Shown here: positions 4,695-59,502 of the stretch, in pieces
How positions within the stretch are numbered: the first letter of the stretch is position 1
Layout: each line of letters starts with the position of its first letter
IMG/VR virus record: IMGVR_UViG_3300045988_138358
Length of the DNA stretch: 64,000 nt
Origin: a virus
Taxonomy: Duplodnaviria; Heunggongvirae; Uroviricota; Caudoviricetes
Reading direction: 5' to 3' (one strand)
Notes under the pieces: model-generated
Seen by the model: only the letters and a program-made list of their open reading frames with translations
Database searches by the model: none
What the model was told of the DNA's origin: nothing
Translations under genes and position numbers: made by a program

Positions 4695-7600
4695 TAATCC
4701 TCCAGCAGAGCATCCAGCGACGGGTCATTAATAGTTGTGCTCGCACGTGGTCGCGGCTGCGGCTGCGATGTTTTGACAACCTTATCTGGATCGCCTTTTG
4801 TATTATTTTTGTTCACATTCAGAAGGTCTTTCAGGATGGAACAGACGTTATCCAGCGCCTTCAACATAGCAGGATCGTTATTTGCAGTGTCAGTAGTTAA
4901 TGGTTGTCTTATTCCGCTTCGAGCAAGATCGGTTACAGTGGGAAGCTGTGGCGGCATAGCAAGAAAAGGTTCCTGCACGGCTGACGCAGTGCCAAATATG
5001 GCGTTATTTGCCTCAGTTGATATTCCTTTGATGCTATCGGCAGTTTGTTGAATGCCATTATTTAGCCAACCACCAGCACTTTTTGTAAGTGGGCTAATCG
5101 CCCTGGCGATTGTTGAATTCTGCCCTGTAGCCTGATAGACAAAATCATTTAATATGCCAGTGCCATCGATGCCACCAACAAGCTGTGAAACGTTATCACC
5201 AATTGCAGGTAATACAGCCGAACCAATGCGCTTTATGCCTGTTAATGACGAATCAAACAAAGAACCAAGAAATCCCTTATCTTCGCCGTCTATTACCTTA
5301 TTGCCATTGTCATAGACCGGAATCCCTTTTGAGTTTACAGGTGTTTTTTTATTCTCTGTTGGCTGTGCAGCGTCAGAGAGAAGATCGACCGAAGACATAT
5401 CGCGTTCAGGTGTCGGCCTTTTTTGTATAGCCTCCCTGATATCAGCTACCTGTGGTGCTTTTTTGAATCCAAAAGATTTTCCGGTTAAGCCGGATATTTT
5501 TTCAGTCAGAGCCTGATCCATTCCCTTCGCCTTTTCTGAAAGCGAAGATATAGAACCAAATGAAGTAGCCGACGCAAAATCCTTCACCAAGTCCAGACTT
5601 GTTCCAGCAAGACTGGTAGCCGCGCCGCCAAATAAATCACTTACTCCACTGATACCGCTTTCATTTATGGCGATTAACCGCTCAAGCAAACTCGATGGCG
5701 AGCCAGTATTAACATCAGCGTTCTCTGGAATAATCGGTTGTGGTCGGTTACCTGTTTTTTGTGGCTTTTTGGCTGCCTGGGCATGTTGTGCAACCTCAAT
5801 TGGCTTAGGTGTTGCTGTTGGGACTGCATTCAATACAGGTTGTGCCGGAGATGTACCATCAGCATATCTCACCTTGCGACCAACGCTATATTGCGAATCA
5901 CGAGCAATTAGCTGACCGCCATTCTCTTTCTGAATTTTATTAAGCCGCGCCAATGTTTCATCGGAGAAGCGCCCCTCCCAACGACCGGTATTTGCATTGA
6001 ACGCCCCAAGAGCATTCTTAATAAACTCATTATTAACCGCAGGGTTTCCGCCTTCTTTCGTCGCAATAGCACGAACTAATTGCGTCATAACCTCCGGGTT
6101 GCTGACATCTATTTTTTCATTAGGCGATACACCAAGATATTTACTGACGTTATCAATATATTGGTTAGTATTGTTCTCATTTGGCGGTGCCCATTTTGAA
6201 ATGATGCTGGATACTGTTTGCAGCTTCTGATACCCGGCGGCAGCACTTGTACCGTTGTAATAACTCGATACCTGGTTTGCCAATGCCCGAATCCCTTCTT
6301 CGGGCGTATTAAACCGCGCAAAACGCTGTTCGCCTTTCGCGTTCGGCGCTTCCAGTACCGCCCCCTCCTGATTTGCAAAAACCAGGTTCCCCAGGTTGTT
6401 ATTCCGGTAATTCCTGTTCTTGGCGTTGCTTCCGCCTATATTCAGATCAGCCGTTATTGTATTTTTTTCAGGCGCTTTAAATTCGTCTGGCGATTTGTAG
6501 CCGTGTTCACCCACGCCATCCTCACCACTGCGCCCGCCCTGTAGCTGTCGGGCCAGATCATTAATTGCGGCTACCGTTTGCTTGGTGCCATCTTCAACGG
6601 CTTTCTTAACCTGCGCAGTGCCTTCGCTGCTTGATGAGAACGATTCTTTTAGGCTGCTGAATACGTTTTTTGTCGTGTCTATAGAACTATTTATGCCACG
6701 AGCAATATCTCCAGTATCAAAATTCTGAAGTTTTTCACCAGCCCCCTCAAAGCCTAACGCAGAAATCCCTTTACCTATCAGGTTGGTTGCGCCAGAAACT
6801 AAGCCGCCCATATCAAGCACATTAGCTGTTGCGTAAGCCGATTTTTGCTGTCTGGACACAGCATCATCATCACTTAAGCCAAAAGCTGCCTTTTGCGCCT
6901 CTGTATCTGTGTAACCATCTATGGCGTCATATCCAGCCATTGCCAGCGAACCGATGATAGGGACCGCTCTTGCCGCTGTGGATGCTGCTGATTTAACACC
7001 TATTTTTGCTGCACTTTTGAGGGCTACAGATTCAGTTTTTTTCTTTGCAATGACTTCGCCGGTTTTAATGGTGGCATCTTCAGCCACAACACCAGCTGAC
7101 TTCACGGCCTTAGCAGTATTTTTTGTTTCCTTTGCAATCCCCTTTGATGTATCGCTGATAGTGCTTACATCTTTGGGTTTGCTGATCTTATTTTTAACTA
7201 CTTTTGCTGCTCCGACACCAGTGCCAGCCGCAGCGCTACCGGCAGCAACTTTTTCGCCAGCGGAGAGTGCTTTTTTCCCAAGATTGCGGCCTTTCCTTTT
7301 CGATTTGTTCCGTTTATTTTTTCCCGTCTGATCACCAATATTGATTTTATTTCTTCTGCTTGCTCGATTTTTCCAGAGATCACTTAAGCCGAACTTATTT
7401 CCAGAAGACACTGATTTCCGAAGCTTAACTATCTCGTCAGAAACATTTTCCAGACCATCAATTATTTTGTTGTCATTGGTCTGAAGGATTTTGGTTTGCT
7501 CTTCTACTGCTTGTGCGGATTTTGTCTCAACAGCGTTATTGAATGCTTTTGCAGATGTTGCTTTTTGAGAATTCACCGCCGCCGGATAAGTAATTACTGG

Positions 7601-18056: not shown

Positions 18057-18088
18057 TGTTATGTGATTTAATTTTAGTTTTCTAACAC
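18057..18088. promoter_or_regulatory. operator-like site (degenerate TGTTATG-N17-TCTAACAC) in the divergent region between the capsid gene and 18103
   Basis: Recurrent motif, see findings. Confidence 0.45.
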
Positions 18089-26143: not shown

Positions 26144-26185
26144 CAATTGTGTTAGAAAATTCTATTCAATTATCTAACACAATTG
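26144..26185. promoter_or_regulatory. operator-like perfect inverted repeat CAATTGTGTTAGA-N16-TCTAACACAATTG
   Basis: 13-bp perfect arms, 16-bp spacer, ends ~8 nt upstream of the rdgC start. Confidence 0.6.
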
Positions 26186-33008: not shown

Positions 33009-33143
33009 ATGGATGTTATCTTCGAATTATTAATGCTAATTGATCTGTTTATGAACGCTTCATTGACCACTCAAATACTGGCGTCAATATTTTTGTTACT
33101 CTTCTACCTGGTATTGAGGGAGTTAACAAAGCTACTAATGTGA
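33009..33143 (+). CDS. small hydrophobic protein, 44 aa
   Basis: Hand-found; ATG 33009 with GGAG ~10 nt upstream; stop abuts the stop of the convergent minus gene. Confidence 0.3.
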   Translation: MDVIFELLMLIDLFMNASLTTQILASIFLLLFYLVLRELTKLLM

Positions 33144-35978: not shown

Positions 35979-35989
35979 TGTTAGAAAAC
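35979..35989. promoter_or_regulatory. operator-like half-site TGTTAGAAAAC overlapping the ref stop codon
   Basis: Recurrent motif. Confidence 0.35.
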
Positions 35990-36567
35990 TAATTTATCAA
36001 TTCAATCGCCATCTGATACAACGTCATTTCATCGGCATTGTGCCGCATGAAATCTGCTTTTCCGCCTATTTTTCCATCAGCATGAACAGGGACCAGCCAG
36101 GGATATTGTTCTCGGACCTCGGCTGGCGCTGCGTACTGGTGGTGCCATTTACACAAAGGGAGGACATATTTATGCGCGTTCTCTGCCGTTCTCCCGAAGA
36201 TATGGTGCAGGGATACCACTGGGCTATGTTGCCCGTGAATATGGCAGGCAATGCAGGGGAGAGTACCGATAGCGGTCTGTATCCGGCGTTCATCGGCTGT
36301 GAGTGATCTGCCCTTCAGGCCGCGTGACGTGCGTGTTTTTTTGGGCGGAGCGGATACCGCTTTATCTTTTCTCCGCTGTTCATATTGCTTTGCTTTTTCA
36401 ATTTTCTTTTGCCGATATTCAGGCGATGCGGCTTTTTCTCTCGCTCGCTGCTGCTGGCGTTGAGCTTGTTGAAGGCGCTTTGCCCTTTGTTCCTCTCGCC
36501 AGGCTGGGTCAGCCAATTTTTGCATGGCTTTTTGTCTCTGTTTCTCCCAATAACTCTGTTTCTGCAT
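35989..36567 (-). CDS. ref: Ref-like HNH endonuclease (P1 recombination enhancement function family, tentative)
   Basis: ORF track 192 aa; Lys/Arg/Gln-rich N-terminus plus C-terminal Cys/His nuclease-like core. Confidence 0.5.
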   Translation of the reverse strand: MQKQSYWEKQRQKAMQKLADPAWREEQRAKRLQQAQRQQQRAREKAASPEYRQKKIEKAKQYEQRRKDKAVSAPPKKTRTSRGLKGRSLTADERRIQTAIGTLPCIACHIHGQHSPVVSLHHIFGRTAENAHKYVLPLCKWHHQYAAPAEVREQYPWLVPVHADGKIGGKADFMRHNADEMTLYQMAIELIN

Positions 36568-36615
36568 GATGGCAGTCTCTTACTTTTCAACGATTTTTCT
36601 ATGATTGATCAAAAT

Positions 36616-36645
36616 TGTTAGATATTCAAAATTGATTTTCTAACA
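36616..36645. promoter_or_regulatory. operator-like inverted repeat TGTTAGA-N16-TCTAACA
   Basis: Between divergent ref and the 36688 operon. Confidence 0.55.
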
Positions 36646-36687
36646 CAAAATATTAATATCATTCCTGATAACTGTTTGGAGGACATG

Positions 36688-36840
36688 ATGCTTATAGCTT
36701 TAAGTGCGATCCACCAGCCATCTGTGAATGAAATTGGCCTGTTCTATGTGTTGTTTTTCGGGGCGTTGGCGCTACTTGAGCTTGGTATTGAGCTTTTCGC
36801 AGTGCTTATGTTTTGCGTCACGATTTTGGGGAAATTTTGA
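36688..36840 (+). CDS. small hydrophobic protein, ~50 aa
   Basis: Hand-found; GGAGG upstream; its stop overlaps the ATG of the next gene (TGATG). Confidence 0.3.
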   Translation: MLIALSAIHQPSVNEIGLFYVLFFGALALLELGIELFAVLMFCVTILGKF

Positions 36841-37463
36841 TGGTGAAACGTGTTTTGAAAATTTACATCGCGGGGCCGATGACTGGTTATCCAGATTACA
36901 ACCGTGCGGCGTTTAATGCGAAAGCGAGCGAGCTGATGGCTGAAGGGCATATCGTTCTGAATCCAGCTGTGTTACCTGGTGGCCTTTGTCAGAGTGAATA
37001 CATGGATATTTGCCTGGCAATGGTGCGTTCTGCTGATGCGATCTATCTGCTTAAGGGATGGGATGTGTCCGCAGGAGCACGTGCAGAACACGCTCTGGCT
37101 GAAAAACTGGGGTTGACGGTAATTTATGAAGCACCATCTGACACAGATTGCAGAATGGCAGCGCATCTTTACCGTGAACTGGTCGATGCGTTACGTGATG
37201 TTGCTATTGAATGTCACGGCACGGATCAGCTTCGCGCTCGCTTAAGCCAAACCCTTTCCAGTTACCTGTCTTTAGCTGAAGGATACAACCTCCGGCAGCG
37301 GAGAATGGTCAAATTAATCACGCGTTTATCTCAATCCCTGGCAAATGCCGAACCAACTAATCCGCTACCTAATGACGCAATGAATTATCTGAAGTCATGC
37401 GGCGTTGTTTCTGAAGATGCAGTTCGTTTTGTGGAGTTTATGTCTCAGAGGATGTCGGCGTGA
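36840..37463 (+). CDS. nucleoside 2-deoxyribosyltransferase-like (DUF4406-like) protein
   Basis: ORF track 36813-37463 starts at TTG; ATG at 36840 (MVKRVLKIYIAGPMTG) likelier. Confidence 0.5.
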   Translation: MVKRVLKIYIAGPMTGYPDYNRAAFNAKASELMAEGHIVLNPAVLPGGLCQSEYMDICLAMVRSADAIYLLKGWDVSAGARAEHALAEKLGLTVIYEAPSDTDCRMAAHLYRELVDALRDVAIECHGTDQLRARLSQTLSSYLSLAEGYNLRQRRMVKLITRLSQSLANAEPTNPLPNDAMNYLKSCGVVSEDAVRFVEFMSQRMSA

Positions 37464-37777
37464 GCTGGCGGGGATGGGGAAGGGCAGAAATCATGATACT
37501 CCGCCAGTGCGCCGGAACTATGACGGTAGAGAGTATTGGGAAGCTGATCGGTCGTACCGGTGATGCCGTCAGGACTAAAGCGCGAGAGCTGGGGATCAGA
37601 ATGATTCTGAAAGGTGACTTTCACCAGTCAGCCAAATATCGGCAGAGCGATATAGAGCTGGCGCGGCAGCTTCATCAGTGCGGTGTTCCCCGCCGTGAGA
37701 TCGCAGAAAAACTCGAAATGCCCCTGGGCATGATTAATCAGTACGTTTATTTCGAAAGGAGAGTGCATGAAGTCTGA
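37460..37777 (+). CDS. putative HTH DNA-binding protein
   Basis: ORF track 105 aa. Confidence 0.35.
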   Translation: MSWRGWGRAEIMILRQCAGTMTVESIGKLIGRTGDAVRTKARELGIRMILKGDFHQSAKYRQSDIELARQLHQCGVPRREIAEKLEMPLGMINQYVYFERRVHEV

Positions 37778-42092: not shown

Positions 42093-42696
42093 CTATCAAG
42101 AACTGCGCGAGGCGGCGGAACAGGCAACGCAAGATGAATGGGTAGCATATATTTTGCCGGGTCATAACGGCATTTATCCTGCGCGCACATCTGAGGGTAG
42201 GCATTGCGGATACTTTATTGACTGGCCTGGCATTGATGGACAAAGGAATGCTGGTGCTAATGCCCGTTATATCGCTGCTATCCCACCAAAAGTTGCGTTG
42301 TCACTACTGGATGAAATTAAACGTCAGGAGGACTCAAATATTGATGCTATGTGCCGTATTGCAGAGCTTGAAACTAATATCGCGGCGCTGGTGGCAGAGA
42401 ACGCCGGACTGAAACACGCAATGGCCGTAACTCTTGAGCATGTGTCGGTAACGGATGCAGGGCAGGCCGGAGTTGCTGCGATGATTATTAATGATGCCCT
42501 GCACCACAGCGAAACGCCAGCTACCGACGCTTTCATGGCGGAAGTGCGGGCGCAGGGGGTGGATATGGCTCGTAACGCGATGATTGATTTTGTTGATGGT
42601 GAAGTTGGGCCAAACAAGAACGTTCCGGGTCTGATTAGAGGCGCAGAGATATGCGTAAGTATTGCTGAACAGCTTCGCAAAGGAGGCAACCAGTGA
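42079..42696 (+). CDS. Ea22-like mosaic paralog
   Basis: ORF track 205 aa; N-terminal INYQELREAAE and C-terminal ATDAFMAEVRAQG..QLRKGGNQ modules shared with paralogs. Confidence 0.45.
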   Translation: MSKINYQELREAAEQATQDEWVAYILPGHNGIYPARTSEGRHCGYFIDWPGIDGQRNAGANARYIAAIPPKVALSLLDEIKRQEDSNIDAMCRIAELETNIAALVAENAGLKHAMAVTLEHVSVTDAGQAGVAAMIINDALHHSETPATDAFMAEVRAQGVDMARNAMIDFVDGEVGPNKNVPGLIRGAEICVSIAEQLRKGGNQ

Positions 42697-43178
42697 GCGA
42701 AATTAATTACCAGGCACTGCGTGAGGCGGCGGAACGTGCAACTCCAGCAATGGAACGCCTGTTAATGTTGCCAGCTGATGATGATTTGTTAAGTGAACAG
42801 GAACTTAAAGATTACGGTGTGGATATTGATGCGCTCAACGCCTTCAAATTTCTGATCGGACCAGAAACCGTGCTGGCGCTGCTGGATGAACGGGAAAGAA
42901 ACCAGCAATACATAAAACGCCGCGATCAGGAGAACGAGGATATTGCGCTAACGGTAGGGAAGCTGCGCGTTGAGCTTGAGGCAGAAAAACAGCGGGCAAA
43001 GGATCTGTTTATGGAAAATGCTCGGCTTAAGTCAGGTATAGCCGGTCTGATACACCTCGGTATTCGATATGCGGATGTTGAGGTCATGAAAATTGCTGGA
43101 GATGCCCAGCTTTCTACCCCATGCACTGACAGCATCATAAACAGCATTGCAACAGGCATTCGCATCGAAGGAGAGTGA
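42693..43178 (+). CDS. Ea22-like mosaic paralog
   Basis: ORF track 161 aa. Confidence 0.4.
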   Translation: MSEINYQALREAAERATPAMERLLMLPADDDLLSEQELKDYGVDIDALNAFKFLIGPETVLALLDERERNQQYIKRRDQENEDIALTVGKLRVELEAEKQRAKDLFMENARLKSGIAGLIHLGIRYADVEVMKIAGDAQLSTPCTDSIINSIATGIRIEGE

Positions 43179-43179
43179 C

Positions 43180-43953
43180 ATGACCACTTTAACCGACAAA
43201 GAACTGATTAAAGAAATCAAAGAGCGCATAGGCAGCTTGGACGTTCGAGACAATATTGAGCGCCGTGCTTATGAAATTGCACTGGCATCGATGGAAGCAG
43301 ATCCAGTTGCTTATATTTTCAAACATCCGGCCGGGAAATTATTCTGGGCTTTAACGGATGAAAGCAATAAAGAGCAAGCGGACGTTATTCCTGTTTATGC
43401 CGCCCCTCCAGTACCAGTAGTACCTGCTGCATTACCTGAGAACGACGATGATGACGGGCATGACATTGATTATCTTGAGCCATCTGAAGTTTACTCGCTT
43501 GGGCGAACAGCTGGCTGGAACGCCTGCCGTGCTGCCATGCTTCATGGTGCCGAACCTGTAAGCCAAACTTACAAGTTGCCTCCCCTGTCATCCAACGAAG
43601 TAAACGACGCGGCATGGAAATTACGCAACATGCTTACTGAACACGGTCCTCTTAATGGGCGTCAGTTCAACAATCTGAAAGGTTGCTTCTATGAGGCATT
43701 AAAGGTCGCAATGCGCAACTATCCGGTAACTCCGGATGGTTGGATAAGCTGTAGTGAGCGAATGCCGGATACCAAAACAGCCGTTCTTGTTGCCAAGGAG
43801 TTTGATAGGAAAGGTGACTGGCGAATGAAATGGGCGACTTACATCCCGGGGCATCCTGACGCTAATGATGGGTGGATCATTCCTGGGGCGTCGTGGAAAC
43901 CGTCACACTGGATGCCGCTACCAGAACCGCCGCAGGAGGTTAACCGTGGCTAA
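43180..43953 (+). CDS. DUF551-like protein (tentative)
   Basis: ORF track 43147-43953; ATG at 43180 has GGAG upstream. Confidence 0.4.
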   Translation: MTTLTDKELIKEIKERIGSLDVRDNIERRAYEIALASMEADPVAYIFKHPAGKLFWALTDESNKEQADVIPVYAAPPVPVVPAALPENDDDDGHDIDYLEPSEVYSLGRTAGWNACRAAMLHGAEPVSQTYKLPPLSSNEVNDAAWKLRNMLTEHGPLNGRQFNNLKGCFYEALKVAMRNYPVTPDGWISCSERMPDTKTAVLVAKEFDRKGDWRMKWATYIPGHPDANDGWIIPGASWKPSHWMPLPEPPQEVNRG

Positions 43954-44227
43954 CCTTCAACTGGCAGTTAACGGTGAATATTTCGACCAGATGAAGTCTG
44001 GAGAGAAAACGGAAGAGTATCGCTTGTGTAATGACTACTGGAATAAGCGAATTCTGTTCCGCGAGTATGACCGCCTGATTATCACAAAGGGATATCCGAA
44101 GCGCGATGATTCCAGCCGCAGAATAGACGTCCCGTATGACGGATATGAAATCAAGACAATCACGCATCCCCACTTCGGCGATAAACCGGTAAAGGTTTAC
44201 GCGATAAAGGTAAATATCAATGGCTAA
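43946..44227 (+). CDS. small ASCH-like protein (tentative)
   Basis: Inferred GTG start at 43946 after GGAGG; ORF track lists a different N-terminus from 43865. Confidence 0.25.
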   Translation: MANLQLAVNGEYFDQMKSGEKTEEYRLCNDYWNKRILFREYDRLIITKGYPKRDDSSRRIDVPYDGYEIKTITHPHFGDKPVKVYAIKVNING

Positions 44228-44624
44228 ATTTCAAAGAAATATTATTTTTCTGGCAATGTTATCTGCCTGTCATTTATCTCATGCATCGGTTATTGCTGCG
44301 GGAGCTGCGGCAACCGCTGTAATTAGCGCCTCATCCGCCAGCGAGCATGAGCAACGTACTGCAATCAATGCATCTGCCAATACCACCACGGTATCAGTAA
44401 CACAAGAAAAGCCGAATATCGGCTTTGTTACTTGTGGCAAGCGATATGGTGAAATGGTTGGCTCTCTTGGTTGCGTAATGTGGCAAGACGACGACCGAAC
44501 AGAAATTCCGTGGAACTCATGGCCTGGCTACATTCTTGGTAAGAAGCTGCCCACCAGCTATGAAGTAAATGCTATTTCGTTCGACCAATATAACAGTGTT
44601 GCAACGGTCTATTTCTCTTATTAA
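44220..44624 (+). CDS. predicted secreted protein
   Basis: ORF track 134 aa; signal peptide. Confidence 0.35.
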   Translation: MAKFQRNIIFLAMLSACHLSHASVIAAGAAATAVISASSASEHEQRTAINASANTTTVSVTQEKPNIGFVTCGKRYGEMVGSLGCVMWQDDDRTEIPWNSWPGYILGKKLPTSYEVNAISFDQYNSVATVYFSY

Positions 44625-44636
44625 CACGGAGTAATT

Positions 44637-44930
44637 ATGTGGCGCGGTAATAATCATGGTGGAAGCCAGATGATACTTACCGAATATCAGCTCGACCACA
44701 AAACCAATAAATCACGCTCAGTATATTTGCTTCGGCACAATAGCCGCGTAAGGAATACCGTGCTGGAGCAAAATCTGACCGTTGAAATGGATAATTCGGG
44801 GAACTTCAAGCCAACAATTTCGCTTGATGATTTTCCGCGTGGTTTAAGCGAAAGAGAAGCCATGCTGAAATTAGCAGAATGGCTTCAGAGGTTAAGTATT
44901 GTTATTGAAGATAACTGGAGTCAACCATAA
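44637..44930 (+). CDS. hypothetical protein
   Basis: ORF track 97 aa. Confidence 0.3.
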   Translation: MWRGNNHGGSQMILTEYQLDHKTNKSRSVYLLRHNSRVRNTVLEQNLTVEMDNSGNFKPTISLDDFPRGLSEREAMLKLAEWLQRLSIVIEDNWSQP

Positions 44931-45106
44931 TGAAAAACAGAAAGAAATTTTGGATTACTTTTTTGTTTGTATGCCTTTGCGGTTTATTTATTTTATTAGC
45001 TGGTGGTGTTAAATGGGGTACGGTGGGGTGTGGTTTTTGGAGCGGGGTTACTCTTTTCGCAGCCTGGCTTATCGCCAACTTTGAGTCAGGCGGAGGGTAT
45101 TGGTAA
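44930..45106 (+). CDS. small membrane protein, 58 aa
   Basis: Hand-found; ATG overlaps the previous stop (TAATG). Confidence 0.3.
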   Translation: MKNRKKFWITFLFVCLCGLFILLAGGVKWGTVGCGFWSGVTLFAAWLIANFESGGGYW

Positions 45107-45185
45107 GTGGTCTTATTCCCCACTTCATAACGGATATCACGCTCGTGATAACGGATATTCCAATTTTGATAACGGATAAGGCCAA

Positions 45186-45395
45186 ATGAAGCATTTTTTA
45201 AGGTTGGCATTTGTTCTGGCGCTATTTGATCCTCCGGCTGCAATGGCTGGAGAACAGCAACATTGCACAAAAGAGAATGAACCCCCTTTCATCGTTATTC
45301 AATGCGATGACGGAACGGTGACTGTGGTTAATGTAAGAAATGACCGTGTAGCTGTTTGCCGTAAAGGCGAACCATGCAAGGAAATAAAACTATGA
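45186..45395 (+). CDS. small secreted protein
   Basis: ORF track 69 aa; signal peptide. Confidence 0.3.
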   Translation: MKHFLRLAFVLALFDPPAAMAGEQQHCTKENEPPFIVIQCDDGTVTVVNVRNDRVAVCRKGEPCKEIKL

Positions 45396-46150
45396 CAAGA
45401 ATCACTAAAGAGCGTATTTCAGATATTATTTCCCGTATCGAAATGTATGGTCACGGTGCTGGATATACGGCAGATGAAGTATTGGCACTTGCCCAAATGG
45501 CTTTGGCGGCTTGCAAAGATGATAAAAAAATGAAGCTTATCGACTTGTTAGTGAAGGAGCTGCCTAAGTGCGGCGGGTGGCCTGATGGTATGATCGATTG
45601 TCGCCTGCTCAGTGCCAATTTAATGGCGCCATGCGCGACTTTTGCTTTTGGCTCAGACCACAAAAAAGACACGTTCTTTGGGCGCAATTTTTGTTGTGAG
45701 ATTGAGCTTCCAATTGGTGACCTTGATAGCGATGAATACCTGTCAGTTGTCACTCGCGAACAATACGAATCAGCTCTCATAGCGTCGCAGAAAGTCGAGT
45801 TCAATGGTGATGAACTTGAAAGTAAGACTTACAGGTTGGATTTTGGGCAATGGCTGGAACAGCAACGCGGGAAAATCGATGTGGACTGTGGTTGTGTGTC
45901 CACTGAAACATTCATGCACTGGCTGCGGGTAGCTTACGAGGCTGGCAACCATCCGGATTTTCCGGATAGTTCCCAACAATCGCCCAAGAAAAGCGTAAAA
46001 ACCACTCTGGAAAGAGGCTATCTTGAGGCCGCATTAAAGATTAAGCCTGGCCATACGCTAGGCGTCATTGATGCCATGTTGGTTCATGAAATGGCGAAGG
46101 CTTTATTGCCGCTGGTGGCTGATAAAATTCCGAATAAAGCCGATATCTGA
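45374..46150 (+). CDS. hypothetical protein
   Basis: ORF track 258 aa. Confidence 0.3.
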   Translation: MQGNKTMTRITKERISDIISRIEMYGHGAGYTADEVLALAQMALAACKDDKKMKLIDLLVKELPKCGGWPDGMIDCRLLSANLMAPCATFAFGSDHKKDTFFGRNFCCEIELPIGDLDSDEYLSVVTREQYESALIASQKVEFNGDELESKTYRLDFGQWLEQQRGKIDVDCGCVSTETFMHWLRVAYEAGNHPDFPDSSQQSPKKSVKTTLERGYLEAALKIKPGHTLGVIDAMLVHEMAKALLPLVADKIPNKADI

Positions 46151-46189
46151 TCACCATGCTAAAATCCCCTCAATTCACAGAGGGGATTT

Positions 46190-46462
46190 TTGTATATGTT
46201 GCATAGAGTTTTATGGAAAAGCGTTATTGTCGGCGCGATACTGGCTATATCTGGGTGTGCAATGGTGCAATACAACGACGGTGAAAAGGTAAGCATACAG
46301 TCAGATGGTTGGTATGGCCTGGATAGCCTGCAAAAAACCGCAGATAAAGCCTGTCAGCAATATGGGAAGTCTAAAGCAGTATATCAGCATAGCGCGAACG
46401 CTAACCCTCATCTAGCGCCCGGTTCTGGTGTTCAGAATACCATCTGGAAATGTGAGCCTTAA
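46190..46462 (+). CDS. predicted lipoprotein
   Basis: ORF track 90 aa; lipobox ISGC. Confidence 0.4.
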
Positions 46463-46464
46463 AT

Positions 46465-46716
46465 ATGAGCGACTGGAATATTGCAGCTAAAAGTCAGGAA
46501 GAACGGGATAAGGTTAACGTTGATCTGGCTGCCAGCGGTGTGGCGTACAAAGAGCGATTGAACATACCTGTCATAGCTGAACAGGTAGCCCGCGAGCAAC
46601 CAGAGAATCTGCGCACCTATTTCATGGAACGGCTACGGCACTACCGGCAGTTAAGCCTCCAGTTGCCAAAAGGGAGCGATCCGGTGTATCAGAACGAGGA
46701 TGCACCAAAAAAATAG
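46465..46716 (+). CDS. hypothetical protein
   Basis: ORF track 83 aa. Confidence 0.3.
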
Positions 46717-46801
46717 CGGCAAGATGGGGGAGAAATGTGATTAGCCCCCAGCGTGGCGCGCCTACAAACCCAGCTTTCACAAACTATGCCTTTTCAATGT
46801 A

Positions 46802-52379: not shown

Positions 52380-52390
52380 TGTTAGAAAAC
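52380..52390. promoter_or_regulatory. operator-like half-site TGTTAGAAAAC just upstream of the 52408 gene RBS
   Basis: Recurrent motif. Confidence 0.4.
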
Positions 52391-56886: not shown

Positions 56887-57279
56887 CTACCAGCGAGATA
56901 AGCGAACGACGTGTTTTACCTTAGCGATCCACTTACCACGTGAGTTATTAATTACGGCCTGCGCCACCTTTAAGCTGACTTCAAAATCAGCCTTACGACC
57001 ATCAGAATCCACCAGCGTTGCACCGTCTATTTCCGGCAGGCTTAAATAATCCTGTTCTACCTCTAATGGCATTGACGGCTCTCTGAATGGTGTCAATTGC
57101 CGAGCTTTCCAGATAAAGCGAACTCTCAATCCCCTATAAGCCATTACCATGTAGCCTGTTATCGTGCTCTTATGGCCTGCATCAGTACGCGCAGCATTAC
57201 ACGATACAATCTTACAGGTGACGATATTCCACTCCACGTTGGAGACTTCGTGAATGCTTAATTTTGTTGTCTCGTACAT
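56887..57279 (-). CDS. hypothetical protein
   Basis: ORF track 130 aa. Confidence 0.3.
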   Translation of the reverse strand: MYETTKLSIHEVSNVEWNIVTCKIVSCNAARTDAGHKSTITGYMVMAYRGLRVRFIWKARQLTPFREPSMPLEVEQDYLSLPEIDGATLVDSDGRKADFEVSLKVAQAVINNSRGKWIAKVKHVVRLSRW

Positions 57280-57854
57280 CAGAATGCCTCCCAGTCAGTT
57301 GCGATAATATCCACGCCAGTTGCGAACCAGTCTGTCTGCGCCTGTAAATCCCCATTCATCATTACCAGGCGAGGCATAACCATCACATCGCACCCTTCCA
57401 CAATATCGAATGCCTCTTCCGGCAAGAATTCGAAGAGCTTTTCTTTGCTGCCAATGCTGCCACGGAACATCGATAAATAGCTCCCTTTAGGCCATGATGC
57501 CCGGCGGGCATCCAGCCCCTTCATCATCCAGAACATGGCGGCAGAAAAATTGATGTTCTTTTTGGCGATGAAAACATTATTGGCTTCTGTTTGCTTCAGA
57601 AACTTAATTAGCCTTGCCATCGACTCGGATAACGCTACGTATGGCTCATGATTGGCTGCGGACACGCTCACACCATGTAATCCAACACTGACTACCGTCA
57701 TATCGCCGCTTTGAGCGGTTTCAATGTTGACACCTTTGCGAACTAACGAGGCATAAAGTTCCTCTCGCTTTTGTGTCCAGCGTTCCCGCTGACCGATGAA
57801 GTCACTCAATATGAGGTCTGCTTCTGCATACGCGTTATCGTTCGCCGTTAACAT
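57279..57854 (-). CDS. fusion protein with C-terminal DUF2829-like (Tad2-like) domain, more divergent
   Basis: ORF track 191 aa; C-terminal half (AAMFWMMKGLDARRASWPKG .. PRLVMMNGDLQAQTDWFATGVDIIATDWEAF) follows the same pattern. Confidence 0.4.
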   Translation of the reverse strand: MLTANDNAYAEADLILSDFIGQRERWTQKREELYASLVRKGVNIETAQSGDMTVVSVGLHGVSVSAANHEPYVALSESMARLIKFLKQTEANNVFIAKKNINFSAAMFWMMKGLDARRASWPKGSYLSMFRGSIGSKEKLFEFLPEEAFDIVEGCDVMVMPRLVMMNGDLQAQTDWFATGVDIIATDWEAF

Positions 57855-58307: not shown

Positions 58308-58383
58308 TGGTGGCCCCTACCGGACTTGAACCGGTGACCGTGCGATTATGAGTCGCCAGCTCTAACCACTGAGCTAAAGGGCC
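58308..58383 (-). tRNA. tRNA with CAU anticodon (Ile2 lysidine-type or Met)
   Basis: Hand-folded cloverleaf, 7-bp acceptor stem, T-loop TTCAAGT, CCA encoded; close to E. coli ileX as I recall it. Confidence 0.75.
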
Positions 58384-58392
58384 AGATTACTG

Positions 58393-58521
58393 TTAATTCC
58401 GCTTACGCTTTTTGCCAGAACCGCGTAAGGCTTTTGCCGCTTGCTCGATCCCATATGCAACCACCAGCAGAAATAAAAATGTCCAACCAGGGTTCTTATC
58501 GGCAAAGGCCCAAAAATCCAT
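58393..58521 (-). CDS. small hydrophobic protein, 42 aa
   Basis: Hand-found; one hydrophobic helix and basic tail; ends 10 nt before the CAU tRNA. Confidence 0.25.
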   Translation of the reverse strand: MDFWAFADKNPGWTFLFLLVVAYGIEQAAKALRGSGKKRKRN

Positions 58522-58572
58522 CACTTGCAGCTACCTTTTAAGACAAAACGCCATTGCTGTTAGATTGCGGTG

Positions 58573-58587
58573 CCTGGTGCCTCCAGG
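58573..58587. ncRNA. short hairpin CCTGG-TGCCT-CCAGG
   Basis: Second of three hairpins with identical loop and covarying stems. Confidence 0.3.
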
Positions 58588-58795
58588 TGACGTTAACCAG
58601 TTAACAATTAACGCCGGGATGTTTGATTTAACCACTAAGGAGGATTGTTTTAACTGTTCCGCGTGCGCTTAGCCGCATTCACCGCAATGGTAAGAGCACT
58701 TGGCTGGCTGGGCGGCGATGACGCCTGTACGCATTTGGTGATCCGGTTCTGCTTCCGGCATTCGCTTAATTAGCCAAATACTCTTAACGTTGCGC

Positions 58796-58882
58796 TGGCG
58801 GAGAGTAATGGAATCGAACCATCATCGCTTGCGCAATGGGACGGTTTTCAAGACCGCTTGAGCACCATGCTCCCTACTCTCC
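58796..58882 (-). tRNA. tRNA-Ser-like (UGA anticodon, long variable arm), divergent
   Basis: Hand-folded: 7-bp acceptor stem, anticodon loop CTTGAAA, long variable arm, T-loop TTCGATT, discriminator G, CCA encoded; D-arm unusual. Confidence 0.55.
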
Positions 58883-59028
58883 GGCCGTTGTGGTGGCCGG
58901 TACTGAATCTCCGGCATACGGTGCAGCCAATTAGGACTACGGACGATCACCGCTCGCGAAAGGGAAGATTTGCGGCCGCATTTCCCTAACATCCAAGAAA
59001 GCTATCGCATCAGTCTGCGAATCCACCA

Positions 59029-59118
59029 CAACGTTGAGAACACTGGTTGTCACGCTGCAACGCAACATTTATTCGTAGATTGGGATATGACCCCGTTACG
59101 TCAGTGTTCTCAACGTTG
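59029..59118. ncRNA. long hairpin: perfect 17-bp inverted repeats around a 56-nt interior
   Basis: Arms at 59029-59045 and 59102-59118 are exact reverse complements. Confidence 0.4.
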
Positions 59119-59265
59119 TAGTACCGGTTACGGTTCCGGCCAGGCCTCTTCCTCAACGGGGTATTCTCCATACGGACTACCGTTTATTGGTCGTTCCTGC
59201 GGTTTATGTTGTGAAGCCAGATGCTTATCTTCTGGTTGCTTCAAAGAGCTGCACTTCATCACAAC

Positions 59266-59339
59266 GGTAAGGGTACTTCGTAGGGATTCGAACCCTCTGC
59301 CAAGCACGGCGATCTCCGACGTCGCAAAATACCCTTACC
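59266..59339 (-). ncRNA. tRNA-like element: 10-bp closing stem around a canonical T-arm, no canonical cloverleaf
   Basis: Closing stem GGTAAGGGTA/TACCCTTACC with internal T-arm-like hairpin; I could not fold it as a standard tRNA. Confidence 0.35.
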
Positions 59340-59347
59340 TGTTGTGT

Positions 59348-59423
59348 TGGTGCCGATTAACGGACTCGAACCGCTGACATCCTGCTTACAAGGCAGGCGC
59401 TCTACCAACTGAGCTAAACCGGC
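59348..59423 (-). tRNA. tRNA-Thr (UGU)
   Basis: Hand-folded cloverleaf; anticodon loop CTTGTAA; T-loop TTCGAGT; CCA encoded. Confidence 0.75.
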
Positions 59424-59425
59424 AT

Positions 59426-59502
59426 TGGCGATGGTGGGTGGATTCGAACCACCGACCGACAGCTTAGAAGGCTGCTGCTCTATCCTACTGAGCTACACCA
59501 TC
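59426..59502 (-). tRNA. tRNA-Arg (UCU)
   Basis: Hand-folded cloverleaf; perfect 7-bp acceptor stem; anticodon loop CTTCTAA; 2 nt from tRNA-Thr. Confidence 0.75.

Follow-up and report, generated by a model that had tools for sequence, protein, structure and literature searches.

The window, a stretch of 64,000 nucleotides from a phage-plasmid of the P1 group that resembles D6, contains a micro-ORF of 50 codons (36688..36840, plus strand) that is a real gene under purifying selection at the protein level. The gene is already known, and because it is on record as orf88 of phage D6, annotated as a hypothetical protein, it should be regarded as an ordinary gene and not as a discovery. It probably encodes a single-helix protein of the inner membrane, as the first cistron of an accessory operon that is controlled by the C1 repressor and expressed in the lytic phase, and the product would act through contacts of its helix. 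The best guess at its role is that of a lytic-phase modulator of a membrane component of the host or of the phage rather than that of a killer toxin. From sequence, gene context and structure prediction, we infer membrane insertion, topology, C1 control, coupling to the gene downstream and a biological role; confidence is moderate for the anatomy of the micro-protein and low for its role.

Conservation and distribution of the micro-ORF

Viral contigs (45 in total) were gathered with the DUF4406 protein encoded directly downstream as the query, and the micro-ORF was present in 33 of them. These 33 IMG/VR loci, the window and D6 constitute a comparison set of 35 sequences, in which 16 distinct nucleotide sequences of the micro-ORF sort into three lineages: type A, which includes the window and D6, type B (product MLVAISAIHQQSGTEIGLLYALFFTVLALFELGIELFALINFCVTFLGKL) and type C (product MLIVLSALHLPPLTDTTLFHGLLLLALALFELGIELFALTLFFVTMLEKF). 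The micro-proteins of types A and B are identical at 35 of 50 residues, those of types A and C at 29, and those of types B and C at 26 (52-70%). A length of exactly 50 codons, a ribosome-binding site and a TGATG junction with the next gene are common to all three lineages.

The frame taken from the ORF listing of the window starts with ATG at 36688-36690 and has 50 sense codons and a TGA stop at 36838-36840, giving the product MLIALSAIHQPSVNEIGLFYVLFFGALALLELGIELFAVLMFCVTILGKF. Another in-frame ATG is present at 36685, but the start is assigned to 36688 because type C has ACA where the first ATG stands. A Shine-Dalgarno sequence read from the sequence (GGAGG, 36678..36682, plus strand) lies 5 nt upstream of the ATG; it is kept as GGAGG in types A and B, and is GGGAGA in type C. 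With a GRAVY score of 1.64, the 50-residue product is the most hydrophobic among those of the 155 ATG-initiated ORFs of 40-70 amino acids in the window, of which just two exceed 1.2, compared with five in total over 20 shuffles. The hydrophobic ORF of about 50 amino acids with a strong ribosome-binding site that the initial annotation described is therefore present in the form in which it was described.

Several features of sequence divergence identify the micro-ORF as protein-coding. By the Nei-Gojobori method, its dN/dS is 0.055 between types A and B, 0.21 between A and C, and 0.27 between B and C, comparable to the values for the flanking genes (0.10-0.31 for the DUF4406 gene and about 0.1 for ref), and the shifted frames, which are interrupted by stops, have ratios of 0.4-4.3. 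Types A and B differ at 14 first, 6 second and 24 third codon positions, which is a third-position excess, and the segregating sites within type A are distributed 5/3/14. Nonsynonymous changes make up 18 of the 44 differences between A and B, against an expected fraction of 0.76 (P = 6e-7). In the core from L27 to A38 (LALxELGIELFA), seven or eight of the 12 codons differ synonymously across the lineages, and the peptide is constant except for leucine or phenylalanine at residue 30. The synonymous changes in this core, the third-position bias and the low dN/dS together indicate that the constraint acts on the protein, and not on the DNA, the RNA or the mere act of translation.

Sense frame 0 is the sole frame that is open in types A, B and C, no antisense frame is open throughout, and the length of the micro-ORF has been held exactly at about 70% nucleotide identity. 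The omission of the micro-ORF by PGAP from many RefSeq plasmid records might be taken to mean that it is a chance open frame inside a conserved untranslated region. This is barely credible given the third-position bias, the exact length despite nucleotide divergence, the single open frame and the kept ribosome-binding site, and on these sequence comparisons it appears strongly disfavoured. The earlier proposal of a genuine gene for a small hydrophobic protein is thus borne out by low dN/dS (0.06-0.27), constant length and the sole open frame.

The 1.2 kb around the micro-ORF share 89% identity with Escherichia phage D6 and 99% with the E. coli plasmid pEC7-3, and the same region matches 99 complete E. 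coli genomes, always on plasmids. Over the whole window, alignment with D6 yields long collinear blocks of 84-97% identity, with some segments replaced. The micro-protein is 100% identical to the D6 orf88 product (YP_009914765.1 / ASR76402.1), which is encoded between ref (orf87) and the DUF4406 gene (orf89) and overlaps the latter by 1 nt; protein, position and overlap being the same, nothing of substance differs between the two. The match to PHROG 8890 is full-length (E 2.3e-35, with residues 1-50 aligned to all 50 profile positions), and the gene has the position that goes with this family, with a divergent ref before it and the DUF4406 gene directly after it, overlapping by 1 nt.

By tblastn, the micro-ORF was found in 111 PLSDB plasmids (94 from Escherichia, 15 from Salmonella and two from Shigella), in 106 of which one aligned piece spans at least 80% of the micro-protein. 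The other five records have no such single piece, and the two of these that were inspected contain one frameshifted and one truncated copy, which implies that the micro-gene is dispensable for plasmid maintenance. D6 is the only carrier among 50,697 phage records (tblastn). When 1.84 billion representative proteins were searched exhaustively with phmmer, three clusters were retrieved, each corresponding to one lineage; a search of 5.8 billion proteins with a profile of the three lineages added nothing outside them, and a word-indexed search with a single micro-protein sequence found no relatives beyond the three D6-type lineages. No relative was found in Pfam, NCBIfam, PADLOC or the sequences of the PDB. 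In these collections, the family is a very narrow one, belonging to D6-like plasmids of Escherichia, Salmonella and Shigella.

Annotation of the micro-ORF is uneven: it is a hypothetical protein in some plasmid records and is skipped in many, including RefSeq records. Its earlier designation as unannotated therefore holds for many plasmids, but not for D6, where it is orf88, nor for the PHROG collection, where it is PHROG 8890. The direct value of the present analysis is modest, and consists in showing that a 50-codon frame that the NCBI pipeline leaves out of many RefSeq plasmid records is a genuine gene maintained by selection. As the gene is present on more than 100 plasmid records from E. 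coli, Salmonella and Shigella, consistent annotation is warranted.

Operon context, putative operator and the junction with the DUF4406 gene

The micro-ORF is the first cistron of a rightward operon that diverges from ref (35989..36567, minus strand), which encodes a RecA-dependent HNH nuclease according to the ORF, its RefSeq and D6 annotations, and a match to PF16786 in the type C loci. The second cistron is the DUF4406 gene, and it is followed by genes for a DNA-binding protein, a ClpX-zinc-finger-like protein, Ead/Ea22-like and DUF4752 proteins, and a metallophosphoesterase. The order of ref, a palindrome, the micro-ORF and the DUF4406 gene is kept in types A, B and C; the genes further downstream are mosaic. 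The third cistron (37460..37777, plus strand) may begin with another overlap, since a GTG at 37460 overlaps the TGA of the DUF4406 gene at 37461-37463; RefSeq records place the start of this DNA-binding protein further downstream than 37460.

In the 120-bp intergenic region between ref and the micro-ORF, a block of about 48 bp stays conserved across the three lineages while its flanks diverge. At the centre of this block is an inverted repeat of 28 bp, GTTAGATATTCAAAATTGATTTTCTAAC (36617..36644, not assigned to a strand), which is a putative two-site operator for a C1-type repressor. Three copies of the spaced motif GTTAGA-N16-TCTAAC are present in the window (at 26151, 36617 and 40713), where 0.03 would be expected, and the half-site WWTTCTAACA has 11 copies, compared with an expectation of 0.79. 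This half-site is the core of a motif of about 17 bp, approximately AAATTAGTTTTCTAACA, that is dispersed over the window at 18078, 26150/26169, 35979, 36616/36636, 40712/40732 and 50979, with further sites at 52380, 60574, 60730, 61980 and 63023. Many of these sites are intergenic and near a gene start; the three palindromes are among them, as is the copy at 52380, which precedes the c1 repressor ORF by about 20 nt. The copy at 35979 is just past the ref stop, facing the icd/ant region.

The C1 operators of phage P1 have a dispersed layout of single and double sites. The motif of the window is likewise dispersed and promoter-proximal and is also found in front of c1, and the ref gene of P1 is a lytic-cycle gene that has been shown experimentally to be under C1 control (PMC4713147). 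In the P1 record, a C1 operator (ATTGCTCTAATTGATTG) is annotated between the -35 and -10 elements of P2ref, so that in both P1 and the window an operator-like site precedes a ref homologue and overlaps the promoter region. The two arrangements differ in that the annotated operator of P1 ref is the single site ATTGCTCTAATTGATTG, with no operon of a micro-ORF and a DUF4406 gene diverging from ref, whereas the window has a putative palindromic operator of 28 bp, with the half-site TTGAWWTTCTAACA unlike that of P1, which is common to two divergent units. The excess of the motif, its positions relative to c1, ref and the operon, and its resemblance to the P1 layout suggest that the palindrome is a putative two-site C1 operator of D6 type, and by analogy the dispersed motif is probably a putative set of such operators with a half-site unlike the P1 consensus.

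A consensus promoter scan of the ref/micro-ORF intergenic region found no sigma-70 promoter on either strand at threshold. Both arms of the palindrome appear to contribute a hexamer that resembles a -35 element: TTGATT for transcription of the micro-ORF and TTGAAT for that of ref. Reading of the sequence gives a weak candidate sigma-70 promoter, TTGATT - 16 nt - TAATAT (36632..36659, plus strand), which falls below the threshold of the consensus scan and has a -10 element that types B and C conserve only poorly; its assignment as the promoter of the micro-ORF operon is tentative. A second invariant block, CTATGATTGATC (36599-36611), adjoins the palindrome and is conserved in all three lineages. 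It contains a GATC site (Dam/Dmt methylation) within the short palindrome TTGATCAA, and possibly constitutes either the -10 region for ref transcription or an element sensitive to methylation.

The resemblance of the palindrome to C1 operators of P1 suggests that the micro-ORF operon is expressed in the lytic phase. Through the shared site, ref and the micro-ORF operon would be derepressed together; the operon would thus probably be silent in the plasmid prophage and turned on with ref when repression is lifted. A term search of a study of D6-like plasmids found no mention of ref or of any operator. The analysis also outlines the motif at which the D6-type immunity repressor likely acts, which would make it easier to predict which genes such phage-plasmids, which are widespread, keep silent in the carrier state.

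The TGATG junction (36838..36842, plus strand), at which the initial annotation saw the micro-ORF end in an overlap with the start of an enzyme gene, is plain in the sequence as a one-base overlap of stop and start, in which the final A of the micro-ORF TGA is the first base of the DUF4406 ATG (36840-36842). It is present in 35 of 35 sequences (the 33 IMG/VR loci, the window and D6) from three lineages. In the type C loci from NCBI, the 1-nt overlap is found in the gene calls of four out of five, and the fifth (L051) has an alternative start call. The downstream gene (36840..37463, plus strand) encodes a product of 207 amino acids that Pfam, PHROG and RefSeq annotation agree in describing as DUF4406 or nucleoside 2-deoxyribosyltransferase-like (PF14359, E 7.6e-34; PHROG 5781, E 1.7e-95; PHROG 355 'nucleoside 2-deoxyribosyltransferase', E 1.8e-42), which confirms the deoxyribosyltransferase-like assignment made earlier. 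A literature search found no published functional study of DUF4406. Five type C loci (L050-L054, 6153-7114) have a DUF4406 gene of only 97 amino acids, corresponding to the N-terminal domain alone, with the metallophosphoesterase gene directly after it; the C-terminal half of the 207-residue protein of the window is therefore a separable module.

The likely ribosome-binding site of the DUF4406 gene, GGGGA (36828..36832, plus strand), lies within the final codons of the micro-ORF, at a spacing of 7 nt from the ATG at 36840; the putative site is GGGGA in types A and B and GGAGA in type C. No stable or covarying fold of the RNA was found at the junction (z = 0.18, 0 compensatory pairs). After terminating at the UGA of UGAUG, ribosomes could restart on the DUF4406 cistron, and with a Shine-Dalgarno sequence of the DUF4406 gene's own lying within the micro-ORF, both products may be made together. 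Re-initiation at the junction is plausible from the arrangement of these signals, and the two genes would then be coupled in translation. Because the DUF4406 gene has its own Shine-Dalgarno sequence and no RNA structure masks its start, its translation may not depend on the micro-ORF, or the dependence may be partial.

The same overlap, and the embedding of the downstream Shine-Dalgarno sequence in the last codons of the micro-ORF, would suit a leader ORF whose translation delivers ribosomes to the DUF4406 gene or regulates it, and whose peptide has no role of its own. The sequence of such a regulatory leader peptide would be free to drift, yet the 12-residue block is nearly invariant, being unchanged except at residue 30 through seven or eight synonymous codon changes, and dN/dS (0.06-0.27) is as low along the whole micro-ORF as in the adjoining enzyme genes. 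As there is also no RNA structure that masks the DUF4406 start, a function as leader only is very improbable.

The micro-protein might instead be a dedicated partner of the DUF4406 protein, serving as its membrane anchor or regulatory subunit, with the overlap of the stop and start codons keeping the two products in a fixed ratio. The pair has not been separated in three lineages though the genes after DUF4406 are mosaic, it persists where the DUF4406 protein is cut to its 97-residue N-terminal domain, and the TGATG junction is invariant. The linkage is known from a single phage-plasmid lineage, however, and so may be mere inherited gene order; no protein that fuses the micro-protein to DUF4406 was found, and the 12 more distant viral contigs with DUF4406 genes have no hydrophobic micro-ORF upstream. 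Due to these 12 genes without such a neighbour, an obligate partnership is not general, although it is possible within the D6-type lineage. The chance that the micro-protein is a dedicated DUF4406 partner is judged to be small.

Predicted structure and role of the micro-protein

A monomer model of the micro-protein, built by AlphaFold2 with five sequences, begins with a short helix (residues 2-8), which a break at QPSV separates from a continuous helix spanning residues 13-49. The mean pLDDT is 83, with block means of 91-98 across residues 21-50. A hydrophobic stretch of 33 residues extends from I16 to G48. K49 is the sole basic residue, and the acidic residues E15, E31 and E35 bring the net charge to -2. 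On a helical wheel, the invariant residues A28, E31, E35, A38, F42, T45 and K49 all fall within 180-280 degrees, forming a conserved face with 3-4 spacing that includes the two invariant glutamates. The micro-protein is most likely a single-pass inner-membrane protein with one long hydrophobic helix. Since its lone lysine is C-terminal, the topology is predicted to be N-terminus out and C-terminus in, so that the short N-terminal tail would be outside and the C-terminal Lys-Phe inside. The conserved face with its two buried glutamates would pack helix to helix in the membrane, by self-association or against a membrane partner.

Simple transmembrane helices seldom have a hydrophobic stretch of 33 residues that contains two glutamates, and a monomer model of this kind is compatible with a single span, a hairpin or an oligomer, which it cannot tell apart. 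The amino acid sequence of the micro-protein matters, beyond the act of its translation, as shown by a core from L27 to A38 that is invariant except at residue 30. With its striking invariant core LALxELGIELFA, the micro-protein gives research on phage micro-proteins a small membrane protein that lends itself to clean testing.

Among the small inner-membrane proteins with a single span in E. coli and its phages are the Pf3 coat protein and the regulators AcrZ, MgrB and MgtS, and proteins of this class act by binding larger membrane proteins or by self-assembly. The micro-protein resembles them in having about 30-50 amino acids, one hydrophobic helix, few charges and a basic end that is presumed to be cytoplasmic. 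It differs from them in lacking any sequence relationship, in the unusual length of its hydrophobic stretch (33 residues) and in its two invariant glutamates.

The initial annotation also raised the possibilities of a membrane regulator and of a toxin. Like Hok, TisB or a holin, a small toxin that damages membranes would, when derepressed, depolarise or permeabilise the inner membrane, contributing to host shut-off, abortive killing or the timing of lysis. A protein of about 50 amino acids that is extremely hydrophobic and has a strong ribosome-binding site would be suitable for this purpose, its location behind a site resembling a repressor operator would keep it silent in lysogens, and, if it oligomerised, its acidic conserved face might form the lining of a pore. 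Its size and hydrophobicity are shared with the type I toxins Hok/Gef, TisB, Ldr and Ibs. It is unlike these toxins in its operon context, its strong and accessible ribosome-binding site and its net negative charge; with one lysine and a net charge of -2, it is without the basic flanks typical of Hok and TisB.

Searches for other components of a toxin system were negative. There was no match to a toxin or holin family in Pfam, nor in NCBIfam or PADLOC. No antisense promoter-like site, Rfam RNA or structured leader was identified at the locus, Rfam models detected only tRNAs over the whole window, with no antisense or c4-type RNA at gathering score, and terminator-like hairpins at the locus were limited to a weak one on the minus strand, which is no more than chance. 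The gene forms part of a long operon instead of standing alone as a toxin locus. Its assignment to a type I toxin locus is accordingly not supported: size and hydrophobicity fit, but an antisense promoter or RNA, a stand-alone locus and a family match were not found. A membrane-damaging toxin is improbable on this evidence.

A holin role in particular is unlikely because homologues of the holin and antiholin genes lydA and lydB are annotated elsewhere in D6, at 30.7-31.5 kb, far from orf88 at 76.7 kb. The gene is not located in a lysis cassette, as would be expected of a holin or pinholin, its neighbours being ref and the DUF4406 gene.

The preferred interpretation is that of a lytic-phase membrane protein that acts by helix contacts through its conserved acidic face. 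A more specific version of it is unlikely but worth entertaining: the face that bears the invariant Glu31 and Glu35 may form a small ion-conducting oligomer, or may clamp an inner-membrane protein of the host, as a lytic-phase effector co-induced with the Ref nuclease from a single two-site C1 operator common to both, in a module for host takeover or counter-defence specific to D6-like phage-plasmids.

Other small open reading frames of the window

Three other ORFs, at 33009, 44930 and 58393, had been grouped with the micro-ORF as similar, unannotated and hydrophobic. All three exist, but they are unrelated in sequence, with no similarity between any pair of the four small ORFs, and all are in public records. 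The ORF at 33009..33143 (plus strand, 44 amino acids, GRAVY 1.54) is orf77 of D6, with 100% protein identity, and belongs to PHROG 38362. It abuts the end of the mat gene and encodes a second small membrane-type protein, unrelated to the orf88 product.

The ORF at 44930..45106 (plus strand) encodes a RefSeq hypothetical protein (WP_157902266.1) of 58 amino acids with two hydrophobic stretches. It begins at the last stop base of the preceding ORF (44637..44930), and is part of a run of small hypothetical genes in a section of the window (42100-46740) that has no counterpart in D6.

The ORF at 58393..58524 (minus strand) encodes a RefSeq hypothetical protein of 43 amino acids (WP_255065839.1) that is not hydrophobic overall (GRAVY -0.18), contrary to its earlier description. 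It is situated between the first two tRNA genes of a cluster of four on the minus strand (58308-59502), which have the anticodons CAT (Met according to ARAGORN, Ile according to RefSeq), Ser-TGA, Thr-TGT and Arg-TCT. A D6 counterpart with 68% identity, unannotated, is present at 6181-6282, just downstream of tciB. An ORF of 191 amino acids at 57279..57854 (minus strand) represents a counter-defence gene: it corresponds to one that a RefSeq plasmid of near-identical sequence lists as 'Thoeris anti-defense Tad2 family protein'.
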